Shown: positions 32,928 through 62,597 of the stretch, one piece after another
How the letters are laid out: each line of letters begins with the position of its first letter
How positions within the stretch are numbered: the first letter of the stretch is position 1
Assembly: GCA_964594455.1 (NCBI GenBank)
Contig: CAZQLY010000007.1
Location: forward strand, 13,586-77,585
Length of the DNA: 64,000 nucleotides
Reading direction: 5' to 3'
DNA from: an uncultured Gammaproteobacteria bacterium
Lineage (GTDB): Bacteria > Patescibacteriota > Patescibacteriia > JAHIZJ01
Notes under the pieces: model-generated
The model's input: the letters and a program-made list of their open reading frames with translations, nothing else
Told to the model about the DNA's origin: nothing
Databases searched by the model: none
Program-made: the position numbers and the translations under genes

Positions 32928-32955
32928 AAAAAAAGAGGACTGGTTATCGGTCCTC
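32928..32955 (-). terminator. intrinsic terminator of GC-rich lipoprotein gene
   Basis: Hairpin gaggac-N9-gtcctc overlapping the stop codon, followed on the minus strand by TTTTTTT. Confidence 0.55.
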
Positions 32956-36467: not shown

Positions 36468-36926
36468 ATGAAAAAAAGAACTCTCATGTCGATTGCCATG
36501 CTGGTCGGTGTAGGAATTATCACCGCTGGTATTGCCTCGGCGAACGGAGGTTTCGGGTTTGGCTTCGGAGCTGACTTGGACCCTGAAGAAGCAGCCAATC
36601 TGGCCACAGAACGCTTCCAGCATCAAGCCGATTTGCTTGAAACTGATGTCGATACAGTCAAGGATGCCTGGTCTCAAGGCAAGCGAATAGACGAACTTGC
36701 TGAAGAGCTCGGTATTGATGAAGAAGCTCTTCAGGCACGTATGCAGGAAGAGCATCAAGCCAGAATGGAAGAGCGCCTACAGTCAATGGTTGATCAGGGC
36801 GTGATAACTCAGGAGCAAATGCAAAACCGCCTTCAATTCATGGAGGACAATGGTTTCCAGGGCAAAGGATTTGGTTCAGGCATGGGTCACCATCATGGTG
36901 GCAAAGGCTTAGGACTCGGTTTCTAA
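36468..36926 (+). CDS. secreted Gly/His-rich periplasmic protein (CpxP/ZraP-like helical protein, tentative)
   Basis: Signal peptide, GGFGFGFG tract, helical Glu/Gln-rich core, C-terminal GSGMGHHHGGKGLGLGF metal-binding-like tail. GC-rich relative to flanks. No SD. Confidence 0.55.
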   Translation: MKKRTLMSIAMLVGVGIITAGIASANGGFGFGFGADLDPEEAANLATERFQHQADLLETDVDTVKDAWSQGKRIDELAEELGIDEEALQARMQEEHQARMEERLQSMVDQGVITQEQMQNRLQFMEDNGFQGKGFGSGMGHHHGGKGLGLGF

Positions 36927-37947: not shown

Positions 37948-38121
37948 TCAAGTTTGAGACTCGGCCTCGCCGTTGGTATCATCACCCAGTCTATCCAGGT
38001 GATCCGCATCACTCTCTTCCAGCGACCTGATGTATGAAATGAACCACCAGGTCATTCCCCAACCGATCAATAGAACTACCAGCACAACAGCTGCCAACAC
38101 TATTTTGAAAAAGAACCACAT
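37948..38121 (-). CDS. 57-aa small membrane protein (MWFFFKIVLAAVVLVVLLIGWGMTWWFISYIRSL..)
   Basis: Not in the ORF table (below 60 aa). GGGAGG SD 9 nt upstream of ATG. Begins 15 nt after the stop of the 38137-38481 ORF. Followed by hairpin gaggc-N16-gcctc plus TTTTTTT (minus strand). GC-rich. Confidence 0.4.
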   Translation of the reverse strand: MWFFFKIVLAAVVLVVLLIGWGMTWWFISYIRSLEESDADHLDRLGDDTNGEAESQT

Positions 38122-38136
38122 CTGAACGACCTCCCT

Positions 38137-38481
38137 CTAGTCAGAGCTGCAAACAATCCTAGCCTGCATCTTGGCGGTCATACCCTCACATTCAAGGTTG
38201 ACCCATTTGATGCCGCGGTTAGGCTTGCCAACGCGAGCAACCCTCACCTTGCCTGGACCGCCTTGGATCTGGGTGAATTCCTTTTCCCAGCCCTCTTCGA
38301 ACTTGACGATGGTCGGACCGACAGCCGGAACACCCAATGGTGCGGCAGGATAATGACGGCTTCGGCCTGTCCCTGGGGGACACAAATGCGCACTGTGTTC
38401 ATCGCTTACCTCCTGTTGTGGTTGTAATAGCCAAAAAGAACACACCGAACACATCTTACTACTTATTATTAAATACAGCAA
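38137..38481 (-). CDS. hypothetical protein, GC-rich, start and frame uncertain
   Basis: Long ORF frame encodes ..VGPTIVKFEEGWEKEFTQIQGGPGKVRVARVGKPNRGIKWVNLECEGMTAKMQARIVCSSD. A canonical start (CAGGAGG-N6-ATG at 38402) is in a different frame and reads MNTVRICVPQGQAEAVIILP.. before terminating. Suggests frameshift, sequencing indel or internal TTG start. Confidence 0.4.
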   Translation of the reverse strand: MLYLIISSKMCSVCSFWLLQPQQEVSDEHSAHLCPPGTGRSRHYPAAPLGVPAVGPTIVKFEEGWEKEFTQIQGGPGKVRVARVGKPNRGIKWVNLECEGMTAKMQARIVCSSD

Positions 38482-38525
38482 ATATAATAAGCCGGGGGTA
38501 CCGGCATATTACATTTCTAGTTTTA

Positions 38526-39679: not shown

Positions 39680-39707
39680 TTGACAACACAAAAATAATTG
39701 CTATTAT
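39680..39707 (+). promoter_or_regulatory. near-consensus sigma70 promoter with extended -10
   Basis: TTGACA -35, 16-nt spacer, TGcTATTAT extended -10, about 40 nt upstream of the SD/ATG of the 39749 gene. Confidence 0.45.
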
Positions 39708-39748
39708 TCATGCGTCATAGTTGTCCAGTACAAAGCAAAGGAGGGCTT

Positions 39749-40168
39749 ATGGACAGTAATTTGCCTGTGACGAAGACAGCCGATGTCAGCTTCGGTGACT
39801 TCACTTACGTTGCTCGTTACTATCGCATCACACCACTGGGAAGGTTCGCGGTCGGATTCGTTTTTGCTCTCGAACCACTGCAACCCGGCTCCGAGTGGCC
39901 AATCGATTGGGAGTCCTTCCTCTTCGCAGTAGCAGACGCTATTTCCTCTGCGGAAAGGATCGGTTCCTTGGGTGTTGGGCTCGTCTTCCTGGAGACTCAC
40001 CATGATGATGAGGAGCTTTGCCCAGGTGAAAGTGCCAGCCATGATCTGAGCATCGATATCACTGAGCAGGAAGCCCATATGCACAGGAGGGATAACGCAC
40101 CAGCTGATGCTCTTACGGCTTTTGCTGACCTGATCAGCGAACCAGAAACTGCGCCCACCACTGAGTGA
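39749..40168 (+). CDS. hypothetical 139-aa acidic protein (GC-rich island)
   Basis: AAAGGAGGG SD 5 nt before ATG (MDSNLPVTKTADVSF..), followed by terminator. The ORF table extends to 39698 but that upstream Met has no SD. The antisense ORF 39704-40084 is judged spurious. Confidence 0.55.
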   Translation: MDSNLPVTKTADVSFGDFTYVARYYRITPLGRFAVGFVFALEPLQPGSEWPIDWESFLFAVADAISSAERIGSLGVGLVFLETHHDDEELCPGESASHDLSIDITEQEAHMHRRDNAPADALTAFADLISEPETAPTTE

Positions 40169-49106: not shown

Positions 49107-49134
49107 TTGACAAAATCCTGTTTTCGTGTACAAT
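49107..49134 (+). promoter_or_regulatory. near-consensus sigma70 promoter upstream of GC-rich gene
   Basis: TTGACA-N16-TACAAT, about 90 nt upstream of the AAAGGAGG SD and ATG at 49228. Confidence 0.45.
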
Positions 49135-49227
49135 ATACTGTTCTGTTTTCAGAACGTTGATTTCAAAATCCAAGGGTACTTGTGCCCTAAAAAACTTGAT
49201 TCAAGCCCTGCGCAAAGGAGGAATGCC

Positions 49228-50640
49228 ATGTCCGCAAACTCAAGGGTCAGGTGGTGGATGGTACTGCTAGCAGTACTGCTTTTTCTTCTACCTGCTTCCA
49301 TTTGGTTCGGCTGGCTCCTCCGGGGACCATCTGAACCACCGACTCGCCTCGAGACCCAGTTCACTGACACGTGCTTCTGGGATCCTGAGGCCGATCTGAA
49401 CTTCGGTACCGTGACAGTGGGGACAACAAACACTCTTCGTTTCCCGCTGTACAACGATTCCGACTCACGGATCGTGATTCATCTGTCAGCTTCGAGTGAT
49501 CAGTTCACTCTGGAGCCCAACGGTGGTGACTACACTATGCTCCCACAGCAGACTGTTGTCATCGCTGTTACTTTCTGTCCGGACACCTTAGGGCCTCAAC
49601 ACTGCCGTGTTTCCATGGGTCACCCCAGTCTGGATGAGATCATCTGTTTCGGCCTGGCCACGACTGGCCCGACTCGCAGCAAGTATGATCAGCCGTTCGA
49701 TACACATTCGATCTGGAATACCCCGATCGGCAGCGAGGCGGACTACGTTCTAGCTGGATTCAAGCCCGGGAAGTATATCGACATCGACCGTGACCACATC
49801 CTGAGCTCTGGCCAGCAACGTAAGCTCCTGGCTCACGAGTCGTGGCCAAACATCTGCGAGGGAGACAAATTCCTCTCCGATGTCTGGGTACCCGATGACT
49901 ATGTTGTGCCTTCCGATGGCAAGAACAACGCCGCCGCCTTCATCCTCCCGGATGGAGAGCATATTTACCAAGCCAATCCCATCTCACGGTGCGAAGAGGC
50001 TGGTCCAGTCTACGCTGGTTGGGCGGCAGTACCAGAGGCGGTGACCAGCATCTATGATGAAGGTCTCTATGGCGGTCATGGTGGCTCCAGTCTGTCCAGT
50101 ATCGGAGGCACTATTCGACTAGGCGAACTAACCTCAGACGAGCCGATTGGCCACGCTCTCAAGATTCTTGTTTTGGCGGCTCGCTACTGCTCTGACGAGG
50201 ATGGTGGCTTCCGCTGGCCGGCTTACCGGGCTGATGCTTACGCCCTCGACCCGGACAATCCCCTGAGGTACAACCAACTGGGTTCGGCTTCTCCGGCGGT
50301 AAAGATGGGATCGCTTCTAGCTGTCCCTGACTGGGTGGACCTCAATTCACTCGGTCTCCAGACGTACGCCGCCTGGAAAATCGCTGTGGCGCTCCAAGAC
50401 TACGGAGCGTACATAGTCGATGATTCGGCCTGGCACACATACTATCTCTGCGCTGAGCAGGGCGTGGGTCAGGAATTCCAGAATACTTACGATCTGGGCA
50501 TAGCCGCTCAAGCCGGTCCTTGGTATGACGACATGATGTGCCTTATCCAATGGCTGCATGTTGTCGACACCAATGGTCCCGACACCATTGGTGGTGGCGG
50601 CGCTCCTTGGAGACCGCTAGCGCCACCTATCGGCGACTGA
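49228..50640 (+). CDS. secreted protein with N-terminal anchor, Ig-like (ASPM/HYDIN-type) beta-sandwich and large C-terminal Trp-rich domain (GC-rich island)
   Basis: Start taken at the Met preceded by AAAGGAGG (the ORF table's 49126 start lies in AT-rich DNA without SD). Hydrophobic N-terminus WWMVLLAVLLFLLPASIWFGWLL. FGTVTVGTTNTLRFPLYNDSDSRIVIHL Ig-like motif. Visibly high GC. Confidence 0.6.
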   Translation: MSANSRVRWWMVLLAVLLFLLPASIWFGWLLRGPSEPPTRLETQFTDTCFWDPEADLNFGTVTVGTTNTLRFPLYNDSDSRIVIHLSASSDQFTLEPNGGDYTMLPQQTVVIAVTFCPDTLGPQHCRVSMGHPSLDEIICFGLATTGPTRSKYDQPFDTHSIWNTPIGSEADYVLAGFKPGKYIDIDRDHILSSGQQRKLLAHESWPNICEGDKFLSDVWVPDDYVVPSDGKNNAAAFILPDGEHIYQANPISRCEEAGPVYAGWAAVPEAVTSIYDEGLYGGHGGSSLSSIGGTIRLGELTSDEPIGHALKILVLAARYCSDEDGGFRWPAYRADAYALDPDNPLRYNQLGSASPAVKMGSLLAVPDWVDLNSLGLQTYAAWKIAVALQDYGAYIVDDSAWHTYYLCAEQGVGQEFQNTYDLGIAAQAGPWYDDMMCLIQWLHVVDTNGPDTIGGGGAPWRPLAPPIGD

Positions 50641-50658: not shown

Positions 50659-50692
50659 GGGCCAGAAGTTTCACGCTTCTGGCCCTTTTTTT
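50659..50692 (+). terminator. strong intrinsic terminator
   Basis: Perfect 10-bp stem gggccagaag-N7-cttctggccc followed by TTTTTTT. Confidence 0.7.
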
Positions 50693-50712
50693 ATTTACCT
50701 AGAGGTATTATT
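50688..50712. repeat. 25-nt inverted-repeat copy L (TTTTTATTTACCTAGAGGTATTATT)
   Basis: Exact reverse-complement match to 53776-53800. Partial similarity continues (tgagaggg vs agagagag). Immediately 3' of a GC-rich terminator hairpin in both copies. Confidence 0.6.
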
Positions 50713-50920
50713 TGAGAGGGACTAAAAGTATGAATCATAACAATATTACGTAATCTTTAGTCTCCGTAAATAACTTAGGCGGATATTTGAGATGCCGGAT
50801 CCCGGTCCGGCATGACGATGAGGGGTGTAAATAACCCTCGTGAAAACAATGTGCATGTTGACATTTTTCAATTTCTTCGTTAGAGTATTCAGATTTGGTA
50901 ATTTATAGTAAAATATACAT

Positions 50921-52114
50921 ATGAATATAGCTTTTATCACTCACGCTTTCCCCTACCCAGCTGAAAAAGACGGGCATACATTGATCGCCTACCAAATTAT
51001 AAAAGGATTAGCAGAGTACCATAAAATCTCGTTGTTTTGTTTCGGCGACAAAAATGACCAGATGAATATTGGTGCAATTAGCGATTTGGGAGTAAAAGTA
51101 AATATTTATGAAAGGCCAAAACGGTCCTTACTTTTTTATTATCTGTCCAGCATTTCCAAGAAACTTGCCTGGTTCCAATACCGTCTCTATACCAAAGAGA
51201 TGATTAATAAAGTTAAGGAAATAGATAATTCGTCTGAGTATGACATAATCTATATTCACTCGCCCTTTGTCTCGGCCTATCTGGGGCTGGTGAAAAATAA
51301 ACCAACTGTCTTGACCTATATTGATGCCTGGTCATCCTGGTACCAACAGTTCTACGATATTTCAAAAAACCCTCTCAAAAAGCTTCATTACCTTCAAGAA
51401 GGAAGAAAATCTCGACAACTGGAAAAAGACTTGTTACTCAAAGCCTACGCTTCAGTAGTCGTGTCCAATGTCGATAAAGAGATAATCATGAAACATTCTC
51501 CAGAAGCTAATATTGTGGTCATACCGAACGGAGTCGATCTGGATTATTTCCGACCATCTACTACCCCGCCCGATCCAGAACAAATTATTTTTAGCGGGAC
51601 AATGGATTACCCTCCCAACGTAAAAGCGGTTCTGGATTTCAAAGAAAAGATTTGGCCTAAATTAAAAAAAGAAAAACCAAATCTCAGCTGGTATATTGTA
51701 GGCAAAAATCCGACTCTGGACGTATTCGAACTTCAATCGCTGGACAATCAAATTACTGTTACTGGCTATGTCAAAGATATCAGGACACATCTCTGGCGCT
51801 CGGCAGTCTATTTATCGCCTCTATCGCTAGGCACTGGTTTTAAAAATAAGATTATTGAAGCTATGGCTTGCGGCAAAGCCATTGTGGCCAGCCCAGTCAG
51901 CTTGGCCGGCTTCCCAGTATCTGATGGTGAAAATGTTTTGATCGCTAATAATTCTCAGGAGTTTGCTGATAAAATACTCTATCTACTAAATAACCAAGAC
52001 AAACGACAAAAAATAGAATCAAGGGCTAGAACCTTTGCTGAAATGTATGACTGGTTTACCTCAGTACGCCAATACGAAAATCTAATGAAGCAGGCAGTTA
52101 AACATGACAAATAA
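50921..52114 (+). CDS. family-4 glycosyltransferase
   Basis: GT4 C-terminal region (KIIEAMACGKAIVASP), 397 aa, low GC. Confidence 0.8.
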   Translation: MNIAFITHAFPYPAEKDGHTLIAYQIIKGLAEYHKISLFCFGDKNDQMNIGAISDLGVKVNIYERPKRSLLFYYLSSISKKLAWFQYRLYTKEMINKVKEIDNSSEYDIIYIHSPFVSAYLGLVKNKPTVLTYIDAWSSWYQQFYDISKNPLKKLHYLQEGRKSRQLEKDLLLKAYASVVVSNVDKEIIMKHSPEANIVVIPNGVDLDYFRPSTTPPDPEQIIFSGTMDYPPNVKAVLDFKEKIWPKLKKEKPNLSWYIVGKNPTLDVFELQSLDNQITVTGYVKDIRTHLWRSAVYLSPLSLGTGFKNKIIEAMACGKAIVASPVSLAGFPVSDGENVLIANNSQEFADKILYLLNNQDKRQKIESRARTFAEMYDWFTSVRQYENLMKQAVKHDK

Positions 52115-53489
52115 CCCACCAAATGTTTTAAAACCCTTGTTGATCGTCACGGTATTGGCCATACCTATTTTGTTTTTTATAGCCCAAAATCCCAGCTGGC
52201 AAACTTTGTTACAAATCGCCTTTTTAGTGATTCTTGTTCCCCTTTTCTTAATCAGCGTAGAAATGGGTTTCTTGGCCTTGATTGTTCTTCGGCCGGCCAT
52301 GGATTTATTTAGTCAGGTTGAATTTCTAAAACTGGGTAATTTCTCCTTAAATCTCTCTTCTACAGTCAGCATCTTAGCTATTGCCTGGATTGCATACATT
52401 ATTCTCAAGAATCGTCAGCAAGTTTGGCGGCGTCCGCTATTTTATCCAATTTTAGTTTTCTTTGTGATAAGCCTAGCTTCCATCTTCTATACTTATGATT
52501 TTGCTAATACTTTGACCGAGATTGTACGCAGTGCCAGTATCTTTTTCGTCTATCTTCTGGCCAGCATGGTCATTAATTCACTAGAGCGTTTTAAACGCTT
52601 CCTAAAGGCAGTAGGTTTTTCTCTAGTTGCGCCGGTATTTTTTGCTATTGTGCAATTGATCAGCCAAACCGGATTAAGCTTTGCTGGAGTAAATAACAGG
52701 CTCTATGGCACGTTTGGCCATCCCAATGCTTTGGCTTTTTACATGGTTTTAACTATCGGAATTTTTATCACTTACTTCTTTAGCTTGCCTCTCGAGAAAA
52801 GAAATAAAAGTATTTTAGCAATTCCAGCCATACTATTTTTTATTCTGCTTCTCACTTACACCCGTGGAGCTTGGCTTGGTTTGGGAGCATTCTTGATACT
52901 AATAGGCTTCTTTCATTATCGAAAAGCAATCATAGCTTTGATTGTTGTAGCTGTATTAGCAATCGGACTAGCACCCACTGTAAATAATTTCCTTTTTGAT
53001 GAATTCAATATCAATCTATCAAATGTACCAGTAATCCAAAGAATAACTGACGAATCAAGCGAAGAAAGCTCTATTGAGTGGCGACTCGAAGTTTGGTCAG
53101 ATATGAGGCGCCGAATCGTTGAGCAGCCTTATTTTGGATATGGATTAGGATCCTTCCCTGTCCTACGCGAACAGTCAGTCAAAGGTTTCTTTGAAAGCAC
53201 TGACGCCCATAATGATTATCTCCGATACATTATTGAGTTAGGTTTTGTTGGCCTGTTAGCTTACTGCTTTTTGATTTTCAAAAACATTGGTAACCTATTC
53301 TACCGTTATATCAAATCTCAAACTCGTGAGACTAAAGCCTGGCTGCTGGGCGGATGCACACTAGCTGTTTCATTTGCTATCATGAGTTTTTATGACAACA
53401 TTATGCAAGGTACTGCTGTGATGTGGTTATTTTGGTCATTAATGGCTGTAGTCTACAACTATTCAAAATTCATGCAAAAAAATAGTTAG
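52104..53489 (+). CDS. O-antigen ligase/polymerase-like (Wzy_C family) polytopic membrane protein
   Basis: About 11 TM helices with extracytoplasmic loop containing the R-x-xx-W / HN-x-Y..E pattern (TDAHNDYLRYIIELGFVG). 461 aa. Overlaps the GT4 gene by 11 nt. Confidence 0.7.
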   Translation: MTNNPPNVLKPLLIVTVLAIPILFFIAQNPSWQTLLQIAFLVILVPLFLISVEMGFLALIVLRPAMDLFSQVEFLKLGNFSLNLSSTVSILAIAWIAYIILKNRQQVWRRPLFYPILVFFVISLASIFYTYDFANTLTEIVRSASIFFVYLLASMVINSLERFKRFLKAVGFSLVAPVFFAIVQLISQTGLSFAGVNNRLYGTFGHPNALAFYMVLTIGIFITYFFSLPLEKRNKSILAIPAILFFILLLTYTRGAWLGLGAFLILIGFFHYRKAIIALIVVAVLAIGLAPTVNNFLFDEFNINLSNVPVIQRITDESSEESSIEWRLEVWSDMRRRIVEQPYFGYGLGSFPVLREQSVKGFFESTDAHNDYLRYIIELGFVGLLAYCFLIFKNIGNLFYRYIKSQTRETKAWLLGGCTLAVSFAIMSFYDNIMQGTAVMWLFWSLMAVVYNYSKFMQKNS

Positions 53490-53567: not shown

Positions 53568-53619
53568 TCGGACTCCCGCCTCGACTCGCCCGGCTCATCG
53601 GGCGAGGCGGGTGATCCGA
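53568..53619. repeat. GC-rich imperfect palindrome (tcggaCTCCCGCCTCGactcGCCCG-gctcat-CGGGCGAGGCGGGtgaTCCGA)
   Basis: Long stem-loop inside a 280-nt non-coding stretch, flanked by ttttcgga / tccgaaaat. Confidence 0.45.
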
Positions 53620-53775
53620 AAATCCCGTTCAAATAGCAAATTAGTAAAACCTCTCTTACCCGCCTCCAGTCAGCAAGAGTAACGTTTCAAATACAGTATT
53701 GGTCCTGCGGCTGGGTTATTTACAGTGGCTAAAGATTACATAAGTGGCTATTATCTATACTTTTATTCTCTCTCT

Positions 53776-53800
53776 AATAATACCTCTAGGTAAATAAAAA
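53776..53800. repeat. 25-nt inverted-repeat copy R (AATAATACCTCTAGGTAAATAAAAA)
   Basis: Reverse complement of 50688-50712. Abuts the terminator at 53801-53840. Confidence 0.6.
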
Positions 53801-53840
53801 GAGAGCCGGATAACCTCGAAAGGTTAACCGGCTCTTTGCT
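53801..53840 (-). terminator. intrinsic terminator of the GC-rich minus-strand operon
   Basis: Hairpin agagccgg-N18-ccggctct with internal aacct/aggtt sub-stem. Followed on the minus strand by CTTTTTATTT. Confidence 0.7.
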
Positions 53841-53867
53841 AATGTGCGTTACCCTGTTTGCCCAGAG

Positions 53868-54707
53868 CTACTCCTCGCAGAGTCTGGCGTTGCCATCCTC
53901 CGGGAGTTCAATGAACAACTTTCCGTAGCTGAAGGGCCAGGCTTCGTGCCCTTCATAGTCCTTAAGCCGGAGGTACAGTCCACTACATCGACCACAGGGG
54001 TCGACCGTGAACGTAACCGACTCAGTCGCCTTGGGAACATTCTTGACTTCCGGATCTGCTCCCCGACGACATTCGTAGCCACAGAGGTACAGAGTGACAG
54101 GGCCTACGACATTCAGTTTCGGCGGGTGGACCTCGTTGTAAAGATTCACCTTGGCCGTAATCTGATACTGACCGCCGTTCCAGACGATCCTCCAGATACC
54201 GTACGTCATGACCGTTTCCCCATCCGCCTTGGGCTGGACCGAGGGTTCGGCCGTTGCCGCCTGATTGGTCTGGGGAACCGTTCTCGGAACCGTCCGAGCA
54301 CCCGTATTGCTCACGCTGCTCGTCCGAGCGGTATTGCTCGTCTTGCGCGTGACCGGAGCCGTCTTGATCACCGGCGGTTCGGGAACAGCGTGTTCGCCGA
54401 CCGTACCGGGACCGTTGTCCTCGCGAACAACCTTCTGCTCGGATTCGGGCTTGGGCTGTCCGGCGGTAGTGACGGAATCGTCCGGAGCTCCGGTCTCGTC
54501 CTTCTTCTCGACGACCTTCTTCTGCTCATCCTGGGCGACCGGCTCGTCGGCGGGCTTCTTCTGCTCGTCGGCGGGTGTGGTGGCTTCCTTTTTGAGCGTG
54601 ACCTTTTCCTTGGGCGCCGGATCGTCGTCGTCCGCCATGACCATCGGGGACACGGTGAACATCATCGCAACGAACAGCGCCAGCATGATCCACAGAGACT
54701 TCTTCAT
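53868..54707 (-). CDS. secreted protein: signal peptide, Pro/Glu/Lys-rich linker, Cys-rich C-terminal domain (GC-rich island)
   Basis: MKKSLWIMLALFVAMMFTVSPMVMA signal. AAGGAGG SD. Six C-terminal Cys (CGYECRRG..CGRCSG..LCEE). Antisense ORFs 53844-54893 and 54265-55005 judged spurious (GC-rich DNA). Confidence 0.55.
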   Translation of the reverse strand: MKKSLWIMLALFVAMMFTVSPMVMADDDDPAPKEKVTLKKEATTPADEQKKPADEPVAQDEQKKVVEKKDETGAPDDSVTTAGQPKPESEQKVVREDNGPGTVGEHAVPEPPVIKTAPVTRKTSNTARTSSVSNTGARTVPRTVPQTNQAATAEPSVQPKADGETVMTYGIWRIVWNGGQYQITAKVNLYNEVHPPKLNVVGPVTLYLCGYECRRGADPEVKNVPKATESVTFTVDPCGRCSGLYLRLKDYEGHEAWPFSYGKLFIELPEDGNARLCEE

Positions 54708-54767
54708 TTCGACACCCCTCCTTCAATTGGGTATTGTTCGCTTCTTGCTTCAGGTCACGACCGGCGC

Positions 54768-55640
54768 TCAACCACCGATCTCAATCCCGTACAGTCGGTC
54801 GTCTTCGGGCCAGAGATTGGCGATCGCATCCAGCTGGTTGAGCATGAATGTGAATACGGTCCAGCCTCCGCCGAGATCGACCAGGTTCATTAGTTCGGTG
54901 GCATGTTCGAAATCGCCAGGCAAACCAACGTACACGCCGGACCGCAGTTCAGTACCGTCGGCCAGTTGCAGCCTCAGATACGTAACCGCGCCCTTGGCGA
55001 CGTAGAACTTGGCGGTCCACATGCCGTCCTCCCAATACGTCGTATGGGGGGCAAACCGGAATGTAGTCCAGGTTCCCATCCAGAATACCGGAACGTCGGG
55101 ATCAGCCGGATTGTTCATGTAGCCCTCGGGAAGAGAATTCCCGGTGTACCACACTTGTACTTCCACCAGATCGTCGACATCCGTCATCGGGTCAATCATC
55201 AACTGTCCGTCTTCGACGTAGAGCGAGAATTCCCGATAGACTTCGAAGTCTGAGGCGTTGATCGCGTTCAGTTCGACTCCGTTGACGGAGATATCGAGCA
55301 TTCGGTGATACCGATTGTCCGAATCCCTCCGCCAGAAGCCGACGCTGAACTTCTCGTTTCCCCAGACCTGTCGATCGAACGTACCGACGACCTCGCCGCC
55401 CTGAAAAGTGCCAAACAGGATCATGATGTTGGGGTCCTGCAGGTATCCCGGGACGACTGAGCCGGAGATGTAGACTTCCTCACCATCCAGCGCCATCGGC
55501 GACAAAAGGGTGATGCTGAACTCCGCATTGGTCTCCTCCTGGTTGCCGGGGTTGGTGATATCCCACGAGTCGCGGGAACACCCGGATGCCAGACCGAGGA
55601 TAGCCAGCACGGCCAGAATTGCCAGTTTGCTAAAACGCAT
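54768..55640 (-). CDS. lipoprotein of unknown function (GC-rich island)
   Basis: Lipobox LGLASGC. GGGAGG SD 9 nt upstream. 290 aa beta-rich. Confidence 0.55.
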   Translation of the reverse strand: MRFSKLAILAVLAILGLASGCSRDSWDITNPGNQEETNAEFSITLLSPMALDGEEVYISGSVVPGYLQDPNIMILFGTFQGGEVVGTFDRQVWGNEKFSVGFWRRDSDNRYHRMLDISVNGVELNAINASDFEVYREFSLYVEDGQLMIDPMTDVDDLVEVQVWYTGNSLPEGYMNNPADPDVPVFWMGTWTTFRFAPHTTYWEDGMWTAKFYVAKGAVTYLRLQLADGTELRSGVYVGLPGDFEHATELMNLVDLGGGWTVFTFMLNQLDAIANLWPEDDRLYGIEIGG

Positions 55641-55718
55641 CGTCTCTTTCCTCCCTTGAAAATGGGCATCTAGGAGTATATCCGGGGCATCCGGATAACT
55701 CCGGATGCCCCACCCCTG

Positions 55719-57533
55719 CTACCAGCTGTAGTCGAATCCGACCTTGACCCAATGCCGATCGGTCTTGTAATCATGACCGGCGATCAGATCGTGGTCTTCG
55801 CCATTCGGGATGAACTTGTACGACCCTTTGAACCGCCAATAGCGATTGGGCCGGTACTCAAATCCGATTCCCGGTCCGGACCATTCGAAGGCCCAGATAT
55901 CCGAATCATACTCCCACCAATCGTATGAGCCATAGAAGACCCACTTGACGGTGGGCTTGAAGCCGATCCGGGCTTCGATCACCTGCATGGTGTCGGCGAC
56001 AAACGTCTCCGTTCGACCGTCGAAGTGCCGCGACTGCTCCTTTCGCAGGATCTGGTTGTATCCGATCCGCGAGTAGAACCAGCCGGGTTCCAGAGTCAGG
56101 TTGGCATCGAGGTTGCGCTCGAGATTGGTGCCAGCTTTGTAGTTGACCTCGTAGTAACCCCGAGCCGGGGTAACTCCGAGCACTCGGCCGTACCAGCCAT
56201 ACCCATCGACATACACGCCGTCTTCTTCCACATGCGTCTTCGTCGGAGAGACAACTGTGTAGTTGAGATAGGTACGCTGCCCGGCACCATACCATCCGCC
56301 TCCTTCGAGGTAGACGGCGGTACCAAGGTCGTTGCCGTAGATGTTGGAGCGTAAACCGCCTCGGTATTCACCGATGTGGTTCGCATCCGCGATCGCTTGC
56401 TCGACCCGCAGTACGGCGGCCAGATCTCGGAACCAGAAAGTTCCGTCCCAGCCGCTCAGACGAGGCAGCCATTCGATGCCAGAGTAGGCGCTCCATTGTT
56501 CGTCGCCGCCTCCTTGAGAATGGAATCCGTCGACCCAGAGAACACCGCCCTGGACAAAGTCCCGAGCATGTTCCACTTCTTTCTTCTTCTTGACTGGCGG
56601 AGTGGGCGGCGGCGTATAACCAACACGCTCTTCCACCTGTGTCTCAGCCTCATACTCCAGAGGCAGCGCAACGAAGGCGCCGTTCTGGCAGTCCAAGAAC
56701 TGATAGAGGAAATGCCTGTAGCCGCCATTATCCACATAGGGATATTCGACGGCCAGAAGCGAGTCAACCGGTTCGAGGTTCCGCACGTCCTTCCAGTAGC
56801 AGACCGTGGTATCCCAGACCTTGACTTCCTGGCTCGTTCTTCCACCGAAGACGAGCCCGTCGAGAACCAGAGGCCGATCACAAGTTGAGTAGATCCATAC
56901 CGTATCGGGCAGGCTTGCCTCGACCAGCGAGATCCACATCTGTCGCACCTTCTCGGGCACGTTCATCAGTTCCACCTGCTTGCGCAGAGGAATGCCCGCT
57001 GGATCTCCGAGAACGAAGTTCCACCGGTTGATCTGAGTGTCCGTTTCGGTTACGAAGACTTCTTCGCCCTGATAGACCGTGTTACGGTCCACCTGGTTCC
57101 ACTTCTTCAGGGTGTCGACGGGAACGCCGACTTCCTGAGCGATCTTGCCCCACGATTCGCCCTTCCGGATGGATCGTGATGCGGGTAGTTCAATGGCTTT
57201 GGGCTTAGCTCTGCGCTCGACGCGCAGATTTGTCCCTGACACCTTTCTCCAGTCATCACCATCGCAGTATGCGAGAACGGTGTAATAGCTGAAGTAGGCA
57301 TCAGCGCTCGTCTCTTCCAAGACGAAGTGGCTGGTCGCCGAAACAAGTTCCGACTTCACGCCACCGTTGAGCTGGATGAGTCCCACTTCGATCATGCCAT
57401 CGGCACGATTCGACTTGAGCTCCTTCGTGACGATCTGATTGTCTTCCAACGGAGGCTGAATGCAATCAGCCAGCGCCAGGTTGACTCCCAGCAGAGCCAC
57501 GAACACGATCACCAGACACAGCATTTTCCTCAT
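55719..57533 (-). CDS. outer-membrane-type protein: signal peptide, LysM domain, C-terminal beta-barrel ending in aromatic residue (GC-rich island)
   Basis: LysM-like segment GESWGKIAQEVGVPVDTLKKWNQVDRNTVYQGEEVFV. C-terminal ~270 aa of alternating aromatic/polar beta-strand pattern ending ..KVGFDYSW (typical OMP C-terminal signature). GGAGG SD. Confidence 0.6.
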   Translation of the reverse strand: MRKMLCLVIVFVALLGVNLALADCIQPPLEDNQIVTKELKSNRADGMIEVGLIQLNGGVKSELVSATSHFVLEETSADAYFSYYTVLAYCDGDDWRKVSGTNLRVERRAKPKAIELPASRSIRKGESWGKIAQEVGVPVDTLKKWNQVDRNTVYQGEEVFVTETDTQINRWNFVLGDPAGIPLRKQVELMNVPEKVRQMWISLVEASLPDTVWIYSTCDRPLVLDGLVFGGRTSQEVKVWDTTVCYWKDVRNLEPVDSLLAVEYPYVDNGGYRHFLYQFLDCQNGAFVALPLEYEAETQVEERVGYTPPPTPPVKKKKEVEHARDFVQGGVLWVDGFHSQGGGDEQWSAYSGIEWLPRLSGWDGTFWFRDLAAVLRVEQAIADANHIGEYRGGLRSNIYGNDLGTAVYLEGGGWYGAGQRTYLNYTVVSPTKTHVEEDGVYVDGYGWYGRVLGVTPARGYYEVNYKAGTNLERNLDANLTLEPGWFYSRIGYNQILRKEQSRHFDGRTETFVADTMQVIEARIGFKPTVKWVFYGSYDWWEYDSDIWAFEWSGPGIGFEYRPNRYWRFKGSYKFIPNGEDHDLIAGHDYKTDRHWVKVGFDYSW

Positions 57534-57661
57534 GGGTCACCCCTCCTTCTCTTCGTCTTTCCTGTTTCGAAAATAGATTGTCAGTGAGCTATCCGAGAGC
57601 AAGAGAGCTCTCAAGTTCAATGGATTGCCCACTGAACTCATCGAGACCTCTTGCTCGATAT

Positions 57662-58567
57662 TTATTCAAAGTTTCGAAATTCCTCTTCTGGTCCATTCCA
57701 GACCGACTTTCCCTTCTGAACTTCGCTGGCATTCCTGACGTGGTCGTGAAATGTATTTATTTTATTACGATCATCCGAAACCACCCTCACTCTATTCGAC
57801 ATATTTTTTCTACCCGGTATCTCTTCTATATCATCAACATTATTTTTGTTAGGAATATAATTTTCAACCATGTAGTCATTTTTGTCAGCCTCACTCTGAT
57901 CTCTTAATTCCGCAGAACCGTCAGTCGGCTCATCATCACGAGATACTCTAGAATTATCCCTACCTTGTTCACGAAAACCCTGATAGATATGAAATCCGGC
58001 AGATCCGCCAAAGCCAATCAGTAATCCGGCAATTATATTCATGGGGATATTAGGACGAGCCGGATCAGTCTCAGTAAACGGATAGTCAACAACCTTTAAG
58101 ACAATGGAATTGCCACCACCAACATATTCAACACCATTCTCGGACAACACAATAGCTAAAGCCTTAGCCAGTTCAGTAGCTCGCTCAGGTTCAGTGTTGT
58201 AAACTGAAACCTTTACCATGCCAACATCAGCCAAGACTCTGGTTTCAATCTGTTTTTTCCATTCTTGGCGTCTGGCTTCCTCATTCTCAGGAAAGCTGAA
58301 ATCTGAAGACAAATAACCAGAGTTTAACACCTTATCATAGAAAGACGTGGTATAGATAACCTGGCCTAAAGAAAGGCTTAGTCTTTCAGCTGACTTGGCA
58401 GCAGCATAAGCATCTAGATTCGTATCCTTCTCGATCACTAAAAGTGAAAAAGAAGAACGGTACTCAGGCTTTTGGATTAAAGTGACAATTACACTTAATC
58501 CAACAACCACTAAAGTTACAAGCAGAATTGATATCCAATTTTCTTTAATTTTAGCTAAATAATTCAT
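57662..58567 (-). CDS. Wzz-like polysaccharide chain-length determinant (PCP) with extended acidic C-terminal tail
   Basis: N-terminal TM (ISILLVTLVVVGLSVIVTLI), periplasmic helical domain, second TM (IIAGLLIGFGGSAGFHIY), low GC. Confidence 0.65.
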   Translation of the reverse strand: MNYLAKIKENWISILLVTLVVVGLSVIVTLIQKPEYRSSFSLLVIEKDTNLDAYAAAKSAERLSLSLGQVIYTTSFYDKVLNSGYLSSDFSFPENEEARRQEWKKQIETRVLADVGMVKVSVYNTEPERATELAKALAIVLSENGVEYVGGGNSIVLKVVDYPFTETDPARPNIPMNIIAGLLIGFGGSAGFHIYQGFREQGRDNSRVSRDDEPTDGSAELRDQSEADKNDYMVENYIPNKNNVDDIEEIPGRKNMSNRVRVVSDDRNKINTFHDHVRNASEVQKGKSVWNGPEEEFRNFE

Positions 58568-58901: not shown

Positions 58902-60395
58902 TTATTTTATAGTAAATATTTTTAGCTTTGACAAAGCCTTCTGTGCTAGGACCATCCTTTCTTTGCTCTGAGCATAAAAAGTATAAGTGGGATCGCCCTT
59001 TTTGATCCTGTCGCCTATTCTTTTGTGAATGTGAATACCGGCTAATTTTTCTGAAGGTGCTCCCAAAAGTCTAGCAATATCATCAATCGCTATATCATTC
59101 ACCTCATTTATCTTGCCGTTCTTTTTGGCAAAGTAACGTTTTTTGATGGCGCTTAATGTAACATCATCTGATTTAATATTTGGATTGCCACCTTGAAGCT
59201 TAATTATTTTTTGCATTTTTTCCCAGGCCTGACCCGAGTCTAAAATCTTTTGAGCCAATTTTCTTCCTTGTCCGGCCTTAGCTTTACCGCACAGCTCAAA
59301 TAATTCGCCAGCCAAGAGAATTGATTTTTTCTCTAGATCCATCGGCCTAAGTGGATGTCTTTGTAATACTCTTAAGGCGTCCCGAGCTTCCAGAGCGGGT
59401 CCGATTCCCCGGCCAACTGGTTCTCGAGCTTCAACCATTTTTACTTTCACTTTCATCCCAAATCTTTTCCCTAGATAGAGAAACTTTCTCTCTACATCCC
59501 AGGCTAGTTTTAAATTTGGAATTTTCGTAGTCGGACCAACCGGCATATCAATAACCAAATATTTAATACCCATGGCAACTTTTTTGGCCATGATGCTGAC
59601 TATCATTTTATTGTATGGCTCTATGCCTAAAGGATGCGAGGCTCTGATAATCCGATCGTCGGCCGGGGCGACATTTAGACCACCTCCCCACACCAAACAA
59701 CAATTGTTTTTCTTAACAAACTCTTTTATTTTTTTGATCGGATGGCCGACGGGCGCCAGCATCTCCATAGTATCCGCAGTTCCGGCTGGTGAAGTTACTG
59801 CTCGGGACGACGTCTTGGGAATAATTAATCCTGTAGATGCCACAATCGGGATAACAATCATTGAGGTACGATTACCAGCCAGACCCCCCACCGAATGTTT
59901 GTCTACAACCTTGCCACGAAATCTAACCTGTTCGCCTGTTTCAGCCATAGCTTTGGTCAGATAGTACAGCTCTTCCTTGGAATAATGACGAGCAAAGCTG
60001 CTGGCCACAAAATAGCTGATCTCGCTCCGGCCCAACCTGCGGTTAACTATGTCCTTGACAATCGAGCGTATTTCCTTATAGGTCAAGCTTTTGCCGAGCA
60101 ACTTCTTGATAATTGCCTTGATAGAAGCCGGGCGCGACAATACTTTAACCTGCAAAATCTCATCCTTCTTTATTTTGTGCTCCTCCCAGACTTCTCGAAA
60201 CAGACCTATTTCTCCCGGTTTAACTTTTCGGCTGGTAAAATCAGCTTCGGCCACAACTTTATTCTTTCCCCAGCGCAATTCCAGATCATCACCGGGATGC
60301 ACTCCAAAACGTTCAGCCTCAGAGTTGCGCAATACGGCAACGTAGGGACCATCCGCTCGAAAGTCTAATTTTTTTGTCTTTAAAAAGAATGGCAT
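58902..60395 (-). CDS. deoA: AMP phosphorylase (thymidine-phosphorylase family, archaeal-type DeoA)
   Basis: N-terminal extension plus glycosyl-transferase family 3 core (SVGGLAGNRTS, TSSRAVTSPAGTADT). Operon with RuBisCO and R15P isomerase. Confidence 0.75.
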   Translation of the reverse strand: MPFFLKTKKLDFRADGPYVAVLRNSEAERFGVHPGDDLELRWGKNKVVAEADFTSRKVKPGEIGLFREVWEEHKIKKDEILQVKVLSRPASIKAIIKKLLGKSLTYKEIRSIVKDIVNRRLGRSEISYFVASSFARHYSKEELYYLTKAMAETGEQVRFRGKVVDKHSVGGLAGNRTSMIVIPIVASTGLIIPKTSSRAVTSPAGTADTMEMLAPVGHPIKKIKEFVKKNNCCLVWGGGLNVAPADDRIIRASHPLGIEPYNKMIVSIMAKKVAMGIKYLVIDMPVGPTTKIPNLKLAWDVERKFLYLGKRFGMKVKVKMVEAREPVGRGIGPALEARDALRVLQRHPLRPMDLEKKSILLAGELFELCGKAKAGQGRKLAQKILDSGQAWEKMQKIIKLQGGNPNIKSDDVTLSAIKKRYFAKKNGKINEVNDIAIDDIARLLGAPSEKLAGIHIHKRIGDRIKKGDPTYTFYAQSKERMVLAQKALSKLKIFTIK

Positions 60396-60396
60396 A

Positions 60397-61644
60397 TTAT
60401 TTTCTGCCCCATTTTTTCAGGGCTAAGCTAAGCTCTATATTATTCTTGGCAAAATTTTCCAACGATTGTTGTTTCATCGCAGCGGTTATTGATTGATTTA
60501 TAGCTAAAGCACCGTGGTAAGTGCCTTGAGGATGTCCATGTAATCCACCACCAAAATTCATTATCATGTCCGGTCCAATAATTTTATAAAGATCCGGGAT
60601 CAGTCCGGGGTGTAGCCCACCTGAGGCTATCGGCATTACCGGTTTTATTTTTCCCCACGGTTTTTTCAAAAACTTATTAAGAAGTAGAACGTCTTCTTTG
60701 CCGCCTTCCATCTTTCCTACAACTGTACCAGTATGCAGCTGATCTATTCCACCCAGCCGAGCCAACTTAGCGATTACTAACATTGAGATGCCGTGTTTAG
60801 CGTTTCTTGTCATGACTGAATGCATGGCTCGGTGACCGTGTAATATCAAGCCTAATCTTTTTTTGCGCAAAGCCTGGAGACCGGAAAAACCGACAGTCAT
60901 TATATCCACCATAGCACAATGTCCGCCAGCCTTTTTTACAAACTCAGCTCGTTTAATCATCTCATTGGCTGGGGCACTGATATTAAAAGCGCACAATTTT
61001 TTACTGCCTGTTTCTTTCTCGGCTTTTCTGGCCAAGCGGACAGTTTCTCTGACTCGTTTAGTAAGTGGGTTAAATGATAGGTCTGTTAGGTTTTCGTCAT
61101 CTTTTATTAGATCAGCTCCACCGCGAAAAGCATCATAGGCCACTCGAGCGTGCTGCTTCCAGGTCAAGCCGATTTTTGGTTTGATAATTCCACCTATCAA
61201 AGGACGTTTCTTAATTCCTAATTGACGACGGACGCCTTTTAAACCAAAGGCGGGGCCCAAAAAAGTGTTGATGTACTGTTCGGGCATTTCTAAATCCAGC
61301 AATCTGATGTTTTTGATCACCTTCATGCTAAATATATTTCCAGCTACACATGACAAGAGCTGAGAAATATTGCCCGGTTCAAACAGCTCTAAAGGATAAG
61401 CGATTTGGGCTATATTCTTCCTGGGATACAGCTTAATTACTCGGGCTGATAAACGCTGGAACATTTTATCAGTCAATGTTCCAACACTAGTCCAAGTTCC
61501 TACTGATGATTCTGCTGCAACAATCTGTGCTGATTCTCTTAATGTTTTATTTGATTCAATGTAAAAGGTAGCAATAATATATCGGCTCTTTACTAGTCTT
61601 TTATTCAGAGACAAGTAGCCAAGACGGACGTAATCTTTTTTCAT
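60397..61644 (-). CDS. rbcL: ribulose-1,5-bisphosphate carboxylase large subunit, form II/III
   Basis: Active-site motifs GGADLIKDDE, IKPKIGL (carbamylated Lys), LHGHRAMH, GGGLHGHP. 415 aa, no small subunit gene. Confidence 0.9.
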   Translation of the reverse strand: MKKDYVRLGYLSLNKRLVKSRYIIATFYIESNKTLRESAQIVAAESSVGTWTSVGTLTDKMFQRLSARVIKLYPRKNIAQIAYPLELFEPGNISQLLSCVAGNIFSMKVIKNIRLLDLEMPEQYINTFLGPAFGLKGVRRQLGIKKRPLIGGIIKPKIGLTWKQHARVAYDAFRGGADLIKDDENLTDLSFNPLTKRVRETVRLARKAEKETGSKKLCAFNISAPANEMIKRAEFVKKAGGHCAMVDIMTVGFSGLQALRKKRLGLILHGHRAMHSVMTRNAKHGISMLVIAKLARLGGIDQLHTGTVVGKMEGGKEDVLLLNKFLKKPWGKIKPVMPIASGGLHPGLIPDLYKIIGPDMIMNFGGGLHGHPQGTYHGALAINQSITAAMKQQSLENFAKNNIELSLALKKWGRK

Positions 61645-62597
61645 CTTTTTAACCAGGGATAATATTTTTTTATGTATCTTTTGACCTCCGAGGGATTTAG
61701 AACACCAAATTCACATACAATACCTGTAATATTTGCTGCCGGAACCCGATCAAAAGCTAAATTCAAGATATTCAGCCCAGCCGGTGCTCCAGACCATATT
61801 TCTTTGGCCGGTCTATGTTCCAGCTTGATTCTTTGATTTCTGGCATATTTCAATAGACTGGAAACAATATAAACCGGCACTTTATTAACTTCTGCAGCCA
61901 ATGCTATTCCGTAGCTACCTATTTTATTAATAACAGACCCATCCGGTTCAATAACATCAGCCCCGATCAGAACTTGATCCATCATTAAATCCCTGCCAGA
62001 AGCTGTACTGATGAGAAATGGAGCGGCTGAATCAACCACCAGGGTTACCGGGATTTTTTTTGACCTTAGTCTTTTGGCCGTAATCCGACCTTGATACAAG
62101 GGCCGGGTTTCAGAGTTATAGACTTTGAATTTCTTCTGGCTATAGGTTTTTACTAAGAGATTTTCTACTGTTGTTGAATGACAGTGAGTATATACGTTAT
62201 CGCCTTTTTTTATAATCAATCGTCCCAGCTTGGAAATATCTTCAACGGTGTCATCAATAATCTTATTAAATTCTAAGACAGATTTATGCAAAACAAATTT
62301 ATCAGGCTGTTTTTTTATCCTCTCCCAAACAAAAAATAGGCCATTCCTGGCTAAAGGCTCTGTGGGCCGGTTATTTTTTATCAAATAAGTTGCAGCAGCC
62401 TTCATCTCTCTGAGCCAGTTTTTTGGCTGCTTGATGCCCAGATGTTTTCCAAAATCATCGTAAGCATCCAACACCGCCCTAGCTACAGCGGTTGCTCCCT
62501 GGTATTTAAAATCGTCTATGTCTTTTAATGCCTTGTCTAGTTTTTGATAACCCATTTTTATTAAAACCTCCTCAATCGGACGAGAAGGCTCCCTCAC
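61641..62597 (-). CDS. ribose-1,5-bisphosphate isomerase (eIF-2B alpha/beta/delta-like, e2b2)
   Basis: eIF2B-like fold, 318 aa, 4-nt overlap with rbcL, conserved AMP-pathway synteny. Confidence 0.75.
   Translation of the reverse strand: MREPSRPIEEVLIKMGYQKLDKALKDIDDFKYQGATAVARAVLDAYDDFGKHLGIKQPKNWLREMKAAATYLIKNNRPTEPLARNGLFFVWERIKKQPDKFVLHKSVLEFNKIIDDTVEDISKLGRLIIKKGDNVYTHCHSTTVENLLVKTYSQKKFKVYNSETRPLYQGRITAKRLRSKKIPVTLVVDSAAPFLISTASGRDLMMDQVLIGADVIEPDGSVINKIGSYGIALAAEVNKVPVYIVSSLLKYARNQRIKLEHRPAKEIWSGAPAGLNILNLAFDRVPAANITGIVCEFGVLNPSEVKRYIKKYYPWLKR

Follow-up and report, generated by a model that had tools for sequence, protein, structure and literature searches.

The window analysed here is a stretch of 64,000 nucleotides (nt) of contig CAZQLY010000007.1, which contains three consecutive minus-strand genes that differ in composition from the DNA around them: P1 (55719..57533), P2 (54768..55640) and P3 (53868..54707). 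They encode, respectively, a predicted protein with a LysM module and a C-terminal outer-membrane-type beta-barrel, a lipoprotein and a secreted protein. We favour the reading that this cassette is an envelope module native to its genome, passed on vertically and probably expressed at a high level, and that it makes up the core of a Wzz/Wzy-type surface-glycan locus in one clade of the ultra-small Patescibacteria (candidate phyla radiation, CPR). That the module is native and conserved, and is not the product of recent horizontal gene transfer (HGT) or of a chimera, is concluded with high confidence. An initial annotation of the window had considered a cassette acquired from a high-GC organism with two membranes (diderm), possibly a host, an assembly or binning chimera, or a previously undescribed surface system; it is the last of these that the evidence favours.

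At least ten Patescibacteria contigs from independent assemblies, the longest of 697 kb, carry the gene order Wzz-P1-P2-P3-Wzy. Over a range of P1 identities that extends from 95% to approximately 25%, a longer order is conserved, namely Wzz-P1-P2-P3-Wzy (reverse)-glycosyltransferase (reverse)-variable secreted gene-GT4-GHL15/FG-GAP. Within the window, the gene of the Wzz-like chain-length protein (57662..58567, minus strand; PF02706), which with one exception given below always lies directly upstream of P1, is of low GC content and has no Shine-Dalgarno (SD) sequence. The gene of the Wzy_C polymerase/ligase (52104..53489, plus strand; PF04932), always convergent with P3, and that of a GT4 glycosyltransferase (50921..52114, plus strand), placed by synteny, are likewise of low GC content. 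The locus as a whole encodes Wzy_C, Wzz, three GT4 proteins, GHL15/FG-GAP and DUF11 proteins, and the clustering of Wzy, a Wzz-type co-polymerase and glycosyltransferases identifies it as a polysaccharide locus. Neither a Wzx flippase nor an initiating transferase was seen among the locus genes annotated, the search for these being not systematic. The cassette does lie between the GT4/Wzy pair and Wzz, as first described, but it is a core part of this locus and not an island inserted into it.

The extent of the P1 family was established with several searches. A word-index search returned three P1 homologues, all in the context RuBisCO-AMP phosphorylase-Wzz-P1-P2-P3-Wzy-GT4 and all from independent assemblies; a profile of 29 sequences run against the word-indexed database returned the same three and no others, and a metagenome scan with a five-sequence P1 alignment added two more loci of that context. 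When 1.84 billion representatives were searched exhaustively with HMMER, approximately 30 true family members beyond LysM-only matches were found (approximately 30 clusters at 50% identity, with one GTDB species representative). P1 directly follows a Wzz-like gene in six of the seven HMMER-member contigs with readable context, these being L009 (697 kb, Patescibacteria; L009/L010), L011 (441 kb), L012 (196 kb), L013 (246 kb), L015 and L016; in the seventh, a 3.9-kb contig that carries the most divergent member, P1 is next to an SLT gene. Contigs that extend further carry, after P1, a P2-like lipoprotein gene and a small P3-like gene for a secreted protein, then Wzy in convergent orientation, a glycosyltransferase, a variable secreted gene, GT4 and GHL15/FG-GAP. 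Further syntenic loci with the GC skew are L001/L002/L003, L004, L005, L007 and L008. The neighbourhood upstream varies by lineage and consists of a RuBisCO cluster, TopA/DprA or ProRS. In comparisons of the window with L001, L007 and L008, identities were 44-48% for P1, 44-47% for P2, 51-57% for Wzz and 44-53% for Wzy, showing that the cassette proteins have diverged about as far as Wzz and Wzy.

The compositional anomaly on which the initial annotation was based is pronounced. The GC content of 1-kb windows at 54-57 kb is 0.56-0.59 and that of the flanks approximately 0.39; at 200-nt resolution the rise begins at approximately 53800 and ends at approximately 57550. For the cassette as a whole, GC content is 0.572 against 0.397 +/- 0.015 for background windows of 3.7 kb (z=11.4), and the tetranucleotide distance to background is 0.647 against 0.160 +/- 0.016. 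The open reading frames (ORFs) described for the three genes are in frames that match conserved homologues; the many ORFs that overlap them in other frames are what GC-rich DNA usually produces. By its atypical GC content and tetranucleotide usage alone, the cassette has the composition of a genomic island.

If a low-GC native locus had recently received the cassette from a high-GC diderm, possibly the host, this would account for the anomaly and for expression signals of foreign look, but such a transfer is very improbable. The recent-island reading fails because the same cassette, in the same position and with the same skew, recurs in related CPR genomes, a finding that the initial annotation had itself named as one that would overturn its proposal. 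Genomic islands are expected to be absent from relatives or differently placed in them and to diverge independently of their flanks; this cassette occupies the same position in at least ten diverged lineages, with a divergence matching that of its flanks. Signs of mobility were also lacking, with no tRNA gene in the window, no integrase or transposase ORF at 49-59 kb and no flanking direct repeats; the only repeat pair near the cassette is a lineage-specific one of approximately 97 nt that flanks the GT4-Wzy pair. The check on taxonomic origin proposed in the initial annotation, performed by HMMER among the 1.84 billion representatives, revealed no donor family and no relative of P1 outside CPR beyond LysM-only matches, leaving the transfer reading unsupported, and every P1 family member with readable context sits in a CPR-type locus.

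An assembly or binning chimera, which the abrupt change of composition at approximately 53.8 and 57.55 kb might suggest, can for practical purposes be set aside, because identical junctions recur in independent assemblies (NCBI, JGI, ENA, Logan) from different samples and on contigs of up to 697 kb. Furthermore, lysyl-tRNA synthetase (LysRS) orthologues share contigs of 110 kb, 697 kb and 61 kb with P1 homologues. The LysRS of the window is 100% identical to an NCBI protein, its nearest relatives are proteins of 'Patescibacteria group bacterium' entries, and the next relatives belong to Kerfeld-, Doudna- and Gribaldobacteria. By these sequence relationships the host genome is a member of the CPR/Patescibacteria, as the initial annotation had supposed. 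CPR are regarded as having neither an outer membrane nor the genes for its biogenesis (bioRxiv 10.1101/2021.05.31.446380; PMC6851277; bioRxiv 10.64898/2026.03.03.709456); they belong to the Terrabacteria, and the phylum is reported to have lost porins and S-layer homology (SLH) domains (bioRxiv 10.1101/2021.05.31.446380).

An ancient acquisition is compatible with a native module and competes with it on the matter of origin only. In this scenario the ancestor of the clade took P1, perhaps together with P2 and P3, from a diderm; inheritance has been vertical since, and the composition and SD signals began as those of the donor and are now under selection. This is possible, though the less probable account: the fold and the terminal beta-signal of P1 are otherwise diderm traits, and the family is limited to one clade, but no relative outside CPR was found beyond LysM-only matches, and the composition of a donor should have decayed. 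It could not have persisted passively over the deeper splits, because synonymous divergence (dS) of the flanks is already near saturation (0.6-1.6) between the two closest genomes. Moreover, the excess of GC at third codon positions (GC3) scales with the background of each genome.

The GC excess of the cassette is mainly one of synonymous sites. GC3 values of P1, P2 and P3 are 0.69, 0.71 and 0.74, compared with 0.34-0.43 for Wzz, Wzy, GT4, RuBisCO and AMP phosphorylase and 0.37 for the background. The share of TTC is 86% in the cassette and 30% in the background, that of ATC 75 and 24%, of AAG 84 and 30%, and of CTG 46 and 20%. The codons TTA, ATA and AGA are almost eliminated from the cassette; GGG is unchanged, and GAG and CAC are barely shifted. 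In two sets of lineages, cassette GC3 is 0.65-0.82 on backgrounds of 0.34-0.62 and 0.72-0.92 on backgrounds of 0.43-0.68, and an excess of 0.1-0.35 over the own background was observed for P1, P2, P3 and the variable gene in every lineage whose flanking sequence sufficed for a comparison.

This composition is coupled to translation signals. The SD sequences of P1 (GAAGGAGGGG, 57540..57549, minus strand) and P2 (AAGGGAGGA, 55649..55657, minus strand) are kept in relatives; that of P3 (GAAGGAGGGG, 54715..54724, minus strand) has SD-like counterparts 5' of P3 in most relatives. As the initial annotation had noticed, strong SD sequences are rare elsewhere: they precede all five window genes with a GC3 of at least 0.55 and only one of the 51 others (Fisher p=1.6e-6; 56 genes). 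The GC-rich set had been described as one of three genes; these three stand, and two were missed, at 49228-50640 (plus strand) and 32944-33585 (minus strand). All six SD-bearing genes of the window encode exported proteins with a signal peptide. In the other lineages, SD sequences likewise occur before nearly all of the GC-rich genes and almost never before their neighbours. The P1-P2-P3 unit ends in an intrinsic terminator with a 15-bp stem and a T-run (53792..53835, minus strand), which is kept in L004, the closest relative. A consensus scan of the cassette for promoters and terminators gave nothing beyond shuffled sequences, although it overlooked this evident terminator of P3. A hairpin with a perfect GC-rich stem of 12 bp and no T-run lies directly 3' of the P1 stop codon and before the P2 SD sequence (55684..55711, minus strand); it is possibly an attenuator or a stabiliser of the mRNA and could tune the ratio of P1 to P2/P3 expression by partial termination or stabilisation.

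We consider it an even chance that the GC3/SD signature is linked to expression, the genes concerned forming a native class that encodes surface proteins, is strongly expressed and is under selection at synonymous sites. Such a class is suggested by the exclusive coupling to SD sequences, the genes' own terminators, the promoter-like site of the variable gene and the export of all six SD-bearing gene products. Reduced dS also fits selection for strong expression: between the window and L004, dS is 0.28 for P1, 0.39 for P3 and 0.47 for the variable gene, compared with 0.61-1.57 for flanking genes, while nonsynonymous divergence (dN) is similar or higher. Several points weigh against this interpretation. 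The dS of P2 (0.71) is not reduced, low dS could instead mean a recent exchange of alleles, and high expression is deduced from sequence.

High GC3 could alternatively stem from GC-biased gene conversion or frequent recombination at surface-protein genes, an explanation we regard as rather less probable. Polysaccharide and surface-antigen loci are hot spots of recombination. An identity of P2 of 74% between close genomes, against up to 94% in neighbours, has the look of diversifying selection or of replaced alleles; recent exchange could explain the low dS of P1; and the variable slot is occupied by non-homologous genes in different lineages. On the other hand, the bias coincides exactly with gene borders and is absent from the Wzy and GT4 genes in between, it is coupled to the presence of an SD sequence, and codons ending in G or C are unevenly affected (GGG unchanged; GAG and CAC hardly). 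The locus shows that a strong anomaly in GC content, codon usage and SD sequences need not mean foreign DNA and can mark a native class of SD-led, GC3-rich, secreted genes. This calls for caution in the detection of HGT and chimeras in metagenome-assembled genomes and may help to recognise expression classes in organisms in which an SD sequence is missing from most genes.

P1 is a protein of 604 amino acids (aa) that begins with a Sec signal peptide (aa 1-22, LALA/DC; 57468..57533, minus strand), its sole hydrophobic stretch and an N-terminal helix in the structural model; the mature part contains no hydrophobic helix. It is followed by a beta-rich domain (aa 33-109; 57207..57437), defined by strands in the AlphaFold2 (AF2) model, which aligns among closer relatives only and is missing from distant members. 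A LysM peptidoglycan-binding module (aa 119-160; 57054..57179) was identified by PF01476 (E=4.4e-6, above the gathering score) and by matches to LysM structures in the PDB, and 12 of the 29 family members have a LysM match. A ligand for this module is available, because the window encodes peptidoglycan enzymes (Peptidase_S11 and Peptidase_M23 by Pfam); ORFs that we take by reading to be MreB, PBP2, Ddl and Alr are also present. The middle alpha/beta domain (aa 169-300; 56634..57029), with a W-x3-GGDPAG motif and Cys245/Cys282, is conserved in the alignment and modelled with a predicted local distance difference test score (pLDDT) above 90, and no PDB sequence match to it was found. A second, degenerate LysM was considered for this domain and rejected (hhalign probability 0.4%). 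A Pro-rich and probably disordered linker (aa 306-326; 56556..56618; pLDDT <50), which coincides with Pro-rich alignment columns of variable length, leads to the C-terminal domain.

This C-terminal domain (aa 328-604; 55722..56552, minus strand) is predicted to form a transmembrane-type beta-barrel of 14-16 up-down strands, and P1 very probably combines LysM with an outer membrane protein (OMP)-type barrel. The AF2 model, built on an alignment of 29 sequences (25 relatives from the exhaustive HMMER search added to four), has a mean pLDDT of 88.4 and shows long up-down strands at aa 328-603; by DSSP elements, a strand number of 14 or 16 fits. The modelled barrel is closed and all-antiparallel, with up-down connections and an even number of strands, and its best fold matches are the 14-stranded OmpG and FadL. 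Its composition (Gly 13%, aromatic residues 19%, no Cys) and the alternation of hydrophobic and polar residues in its strands are consistent with this. The consensus beta-signal recognised by the barrel assembly machinery (BAM) is polar-x-G-x-x-aromatic-x-aromatic with an aromatic terminal residue. The P1 C-terminus, KVGFDYSW, fits this signal (G-x-x-aromatic-x-aromatic), and the glycine at -6, the aromatic or hydrophobic residue at -3 and the terminal W/F/Y are kept in most of the 29 members. A viral fold library searched with P1 gave barrel and LysM matches only. A point that weighs against a barrel of OMP type is that no Pfam OMP family passes its threshold on P1 or its relatives, the barrel being a prediction. 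Sub-threshold matches in different members nevertheless agree with the model as independent hints at the level of sequence; they include LptD (18.6 bits, cut-off 22.4), OpcA (E=0.04) and, each in single members, OmpA_membrane, OMP_b-brl and Porin_4 (E 2.5e-3 to 8e-3).

It is quite unlikely that the C-terminal domain is instead a soluble beta-barrel, secreted or associated with the wall and binding, for example, glycan or lipid, whose resemblance to an OMP is confined to the model. Such a domain would agree with the failure of Pfam OMP models to score above threshold and with the lack of a known outer membrane in CPR. The initial annotation's description of P1 as LysM plus a C-terminal barrel without a passenger holds in the structure prediction, and all three proteins are envelope proteins by their signals (signal peptides in P1 and P3, a lipobox in P2). 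Its claim that the three are hallmarks of a diderm applies to P1 only, as lipoproteins and Cys-containing secreted proteins are not specific to diderms per se.

Among the closest known systems are the OmpM/Slp SLH-porins of Negativicutes, Deinococcus-Thermus, Cyanobacteria and Thermotogae, all diderm members of the Terrabacteria, the group that includes CPR. Like these, P1 has a module for binding the wall at its N-terminus and a barrel at its C-terminus, with an extended linker between them, and, by analogy, could serve as a tether between wall and outer membrane and as a pore. Unlike OmpM, P1 has no SLH match: its LysM would bind the peptidoglycan glycan directly, whereas the SLH domains of OmpM act with a pyruvylated polymer. 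It has in addition a middle domain, a Pro-rich linker where OmpM has a coiled coil, and no sequence relationship to OmpM. The likeness to inverse autotransporters (intimin/invasin, type Ve) drawn in the initial annotation is borne out in domain order, a periplasmic LysM preceding the barrel (aa 119-160 and 328-604 in P1). It does not extend further, as P1 ends at the last barrel strand without a passenger, has no match to the Pfam family IAT_beta and best matches the 14-stranded OmpG and FadL, while the intimin barrel is 12-stranded. OmpA resembles P1 as an envelope tether in which a Pro-rich hinge joins a barrel to a peptidoglycan-binding domain; P1 differs from it in its reversed domain order, in possessing LysM in place of OmpA_C and in its 14-16 strands versus eight, and the OmpA_membrane match noted above is confined to one family member.

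The outer-membrane barrels of polysaccharide loci (the capsule anchor Wzi; the export porins PgaA, AlgE, PelB and BcsC) match P1 more weakly than the monomeric channels OmpG and FadL do. In contrast to these systems, P1 has no TPR or OPX partners, carries LysM and comes from a putatively monoderm organism. Even to OmpG and FadL the sequence identity is 8-9%, and P1 lacks the hatch domain of FadL and adds approximately 300 aa of N-terminal wall-binding domains. POTRA domains with a 16-stranded Omp85 barrel, which characterise BamA, TamA and FhaC, are not found in P1. P1 is therefore outside the inverse autotransporters, OmpM, OmpA and Omp85, and its working principle is common with the first three. 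No paper linking Patescibacteria with porins and LysM was found in the library searched. What appears to be new, as far as the structural model goes, is that a barrel of outer-membrane type tethered to the wall occurs in this phylum, where it is unexpected, and in a conserved locus that is itself new. CPR account for a considerable part of bacterial diversity and are taken to be cells with one membrane that have lost porins and tethers of the outer membrane; a conserved predicted wall-tethered barrel with a BAM-type signal challenges this monoderm picture for at least one clade, or else points to a new use of a barrel by an epibiont, for example in the membrane of a host. In P1, the question of the CPR envelope has a concrete gene with which it can be tested.

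P2 is a lipoprotein of 290 aa (lipobox LASG/C, Cys21) whose lipobox Cys is invariant across nine lineages, and it is the partner of P1 in all lineages. P3 (279 aa) consists of a signal peptide, an acidic, lineage-specific linker of approximately 150 aa rich in Pro, Thr and Lys, and a C-terminal domain of approximately 100 aa with five Cys. Neither protein has a match in Pfam, NCBIfam, PHROGs or PDB, searches with multi-lineage profiles included. Compared with L004, dN/dS is 0.22 for P2 and 0.26 for P3 against 0.02-0.09 for flanking genes, and identities are 74% and 80% against 91-94% for P1 and all flanks; the low identity together with the high dN/dS suggests diversifying selection or allele replacement.

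A model for the function of the complex can be proposed. P1 would be exported by Sec, its LysM and middle domains would bind the cell's own peptidoglycan, and its Pro-rich linker would reach across to the barrel, held in a lipid layer outside the wall, both barrel termini pointing toward the wall side by analogy with known outer-membrane barrels. P3 and the lipid-anchored P2 would associate with the barrel, and the complex would tether the lipid layer to the wall and/or give the glycan that the adjacent Wzz/Wzy/glycosyltransferase genes produce a passage or a point of anchorage, according to a principle akin to that of OmpM, OmpA and the periplasmic LysM tether of intimin. This tether or porin role in an outer lipid layer of the cell itself, argued from analogy, is put forward tentatively. 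It has to be set against several observations. CPR are described as lacking an outer membrane, which leaves the membrane of the predicted barrel in question; among 312 ORFs in approximately 250 kb of loci there is no other protein with a beta-signal, and no Omp85 or POTRA match was obtained among the genes of these loci. The physical association of P2 and P3 with P1 is suggested by conserved adjacency only. Transport and envelope genes of the window include MacB-type ABC systems only, and no TolC, Omp85, Lpt or secretin.

Alternatively, the module may be directed at a host, although this is unlikely. CPR are typically episymbionts, and an epibiont might export P1 so that the barrel enters the outer membrane or outer lipid layer of the host while LysM grips peptidoglycan, by which the cells would be riveted together or a channel opened, with P2 and P3 as adhesins or specificity factors. 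The described lack of an outer membrane in CPR would agree with such a device, as would the fast evolution of P2 and P3 if these are host-interaction surfaces. However, no delivery system is encoded in the locus, the conserved BAM-type beta-signal implies that the barrel is assembled into a BAM-bearing membrane from its periplasmic side, and the constant linkage to Wzz and Wzy suggests a role in the cell's own envelope. An own outer lipid layer was accordingly ranked at least level with deployment in a host membrane, and the latter above a non-membrane domain. More speculatively, and with a low probability, one CPR clade could be non-monoderm and have kept or re-invented an outer lipid membrane, with P1 as its peptidoglycan-tethered porin, P2 as a lipoprotein of the outer layer and the locus building a surface glycan. 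If true, this clade would be a living intermediate of the diderm-to-monoderm transition inside the Terrabacteria, and P1 the LysM counterpart of OmpM.

The first of the two GC-rich genes missed in the initial annotation is the variable secreted gene of the conserved order (49228..50640, plus strand; GC3 0.60). Its product is predicted to be secreted and to contain an Ig-like domain of the ASH/Cep192 type and a C-terminal domain with a PHROG match to 'minor tail protein' (E=4e-12). The gene is preceded by a promoter-like site (TTGACA-16-TACAAT, 49107-49134) and an SD sequence (AAGGAGG, 49215-49221) and followed by a terminator (50659-50695), all on the plus strand. The slot that it fills, between two GT4 genes, holds GHL15 in L001 (16454-17650) and L013 (16527-17750) and a DUF4832/GH42-like gene in L012 (15653-17032). 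These occupants are non-homologous among lineages; they are GC3-rich in every case and usually SD-led.

The second of these genes (32944-33585, minus strand) encodes a lipoprotein of 213 aa (lipobox IIAC/G) with no Pfam match; it has a GC content of 0.52, a GC3 of 0.55 and a strong SD sequence (AAAGGAGGG). It adjoins the gene of a MacB-type ABC transporter (33666-35662) and bears the cassette-like signature of an SD-led, GC-rich, secreted gene, yet is distant from the cassette. The sole window gene of low GC3 (0.43) with a strong SD sequence (AAGGAG) lies at 19244-20587 (plus strand) and encodes a 447-aa signal-peptide protein, likewise with no Pfam match. Three moderately GC-rich patches (0.50-0.53) were also observed, at 36468-36926 (plus strand), 38100-38500 and 39700-40100. 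In the first of these lies a gene for a small protein with a signal peptide and a GGFGFGFG stretch; the other two contain doubtful ORFs only.

The two copies of the repeat of approximately 97 nt, at 50678-50774 (plus strand) and 53715-53810 (minus strand), are 82% identical and share an exact core of 23 nt (0 expected by chance). They are inverted with respect to each other and lie directly after the terminators of the variable gene and P3, thereby flanking the GT4-Wzy pair. Both insertions are missing from L004, where only the terminators are present. They may be a small mobile element resembling a miniature inverted-repeat transposable element, or sites at which the 3-kb segment between them could be inverted. 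Rfam gave no match to the window at gathering scores, the repeats included, and nothing credible in the repeat region or in the GC-rich patches at 36-40 kb. A GC-rich nested hairpin (53575-53611; CCCGCCTCG...CGAGGCGGG) occurs in the 378-nt convergent spacer between Wzy and P3, within a lineage-specific insertion. Upstream of Wzz, genes for AMP phosphorylase and a form III-like RuBisCO were identified at 58902-62597 (minus strand), together with an ORF (61641-62597) at the position of the IF-2B-family (e2b2-like) gene of relatives. The AMP phosphorylase/RuBisCO set represents the nucleoside-salvage CO2-fixing shunt typical of CPR/DPANN and lies directly upstream of Wzz in approximately half of the lineages.

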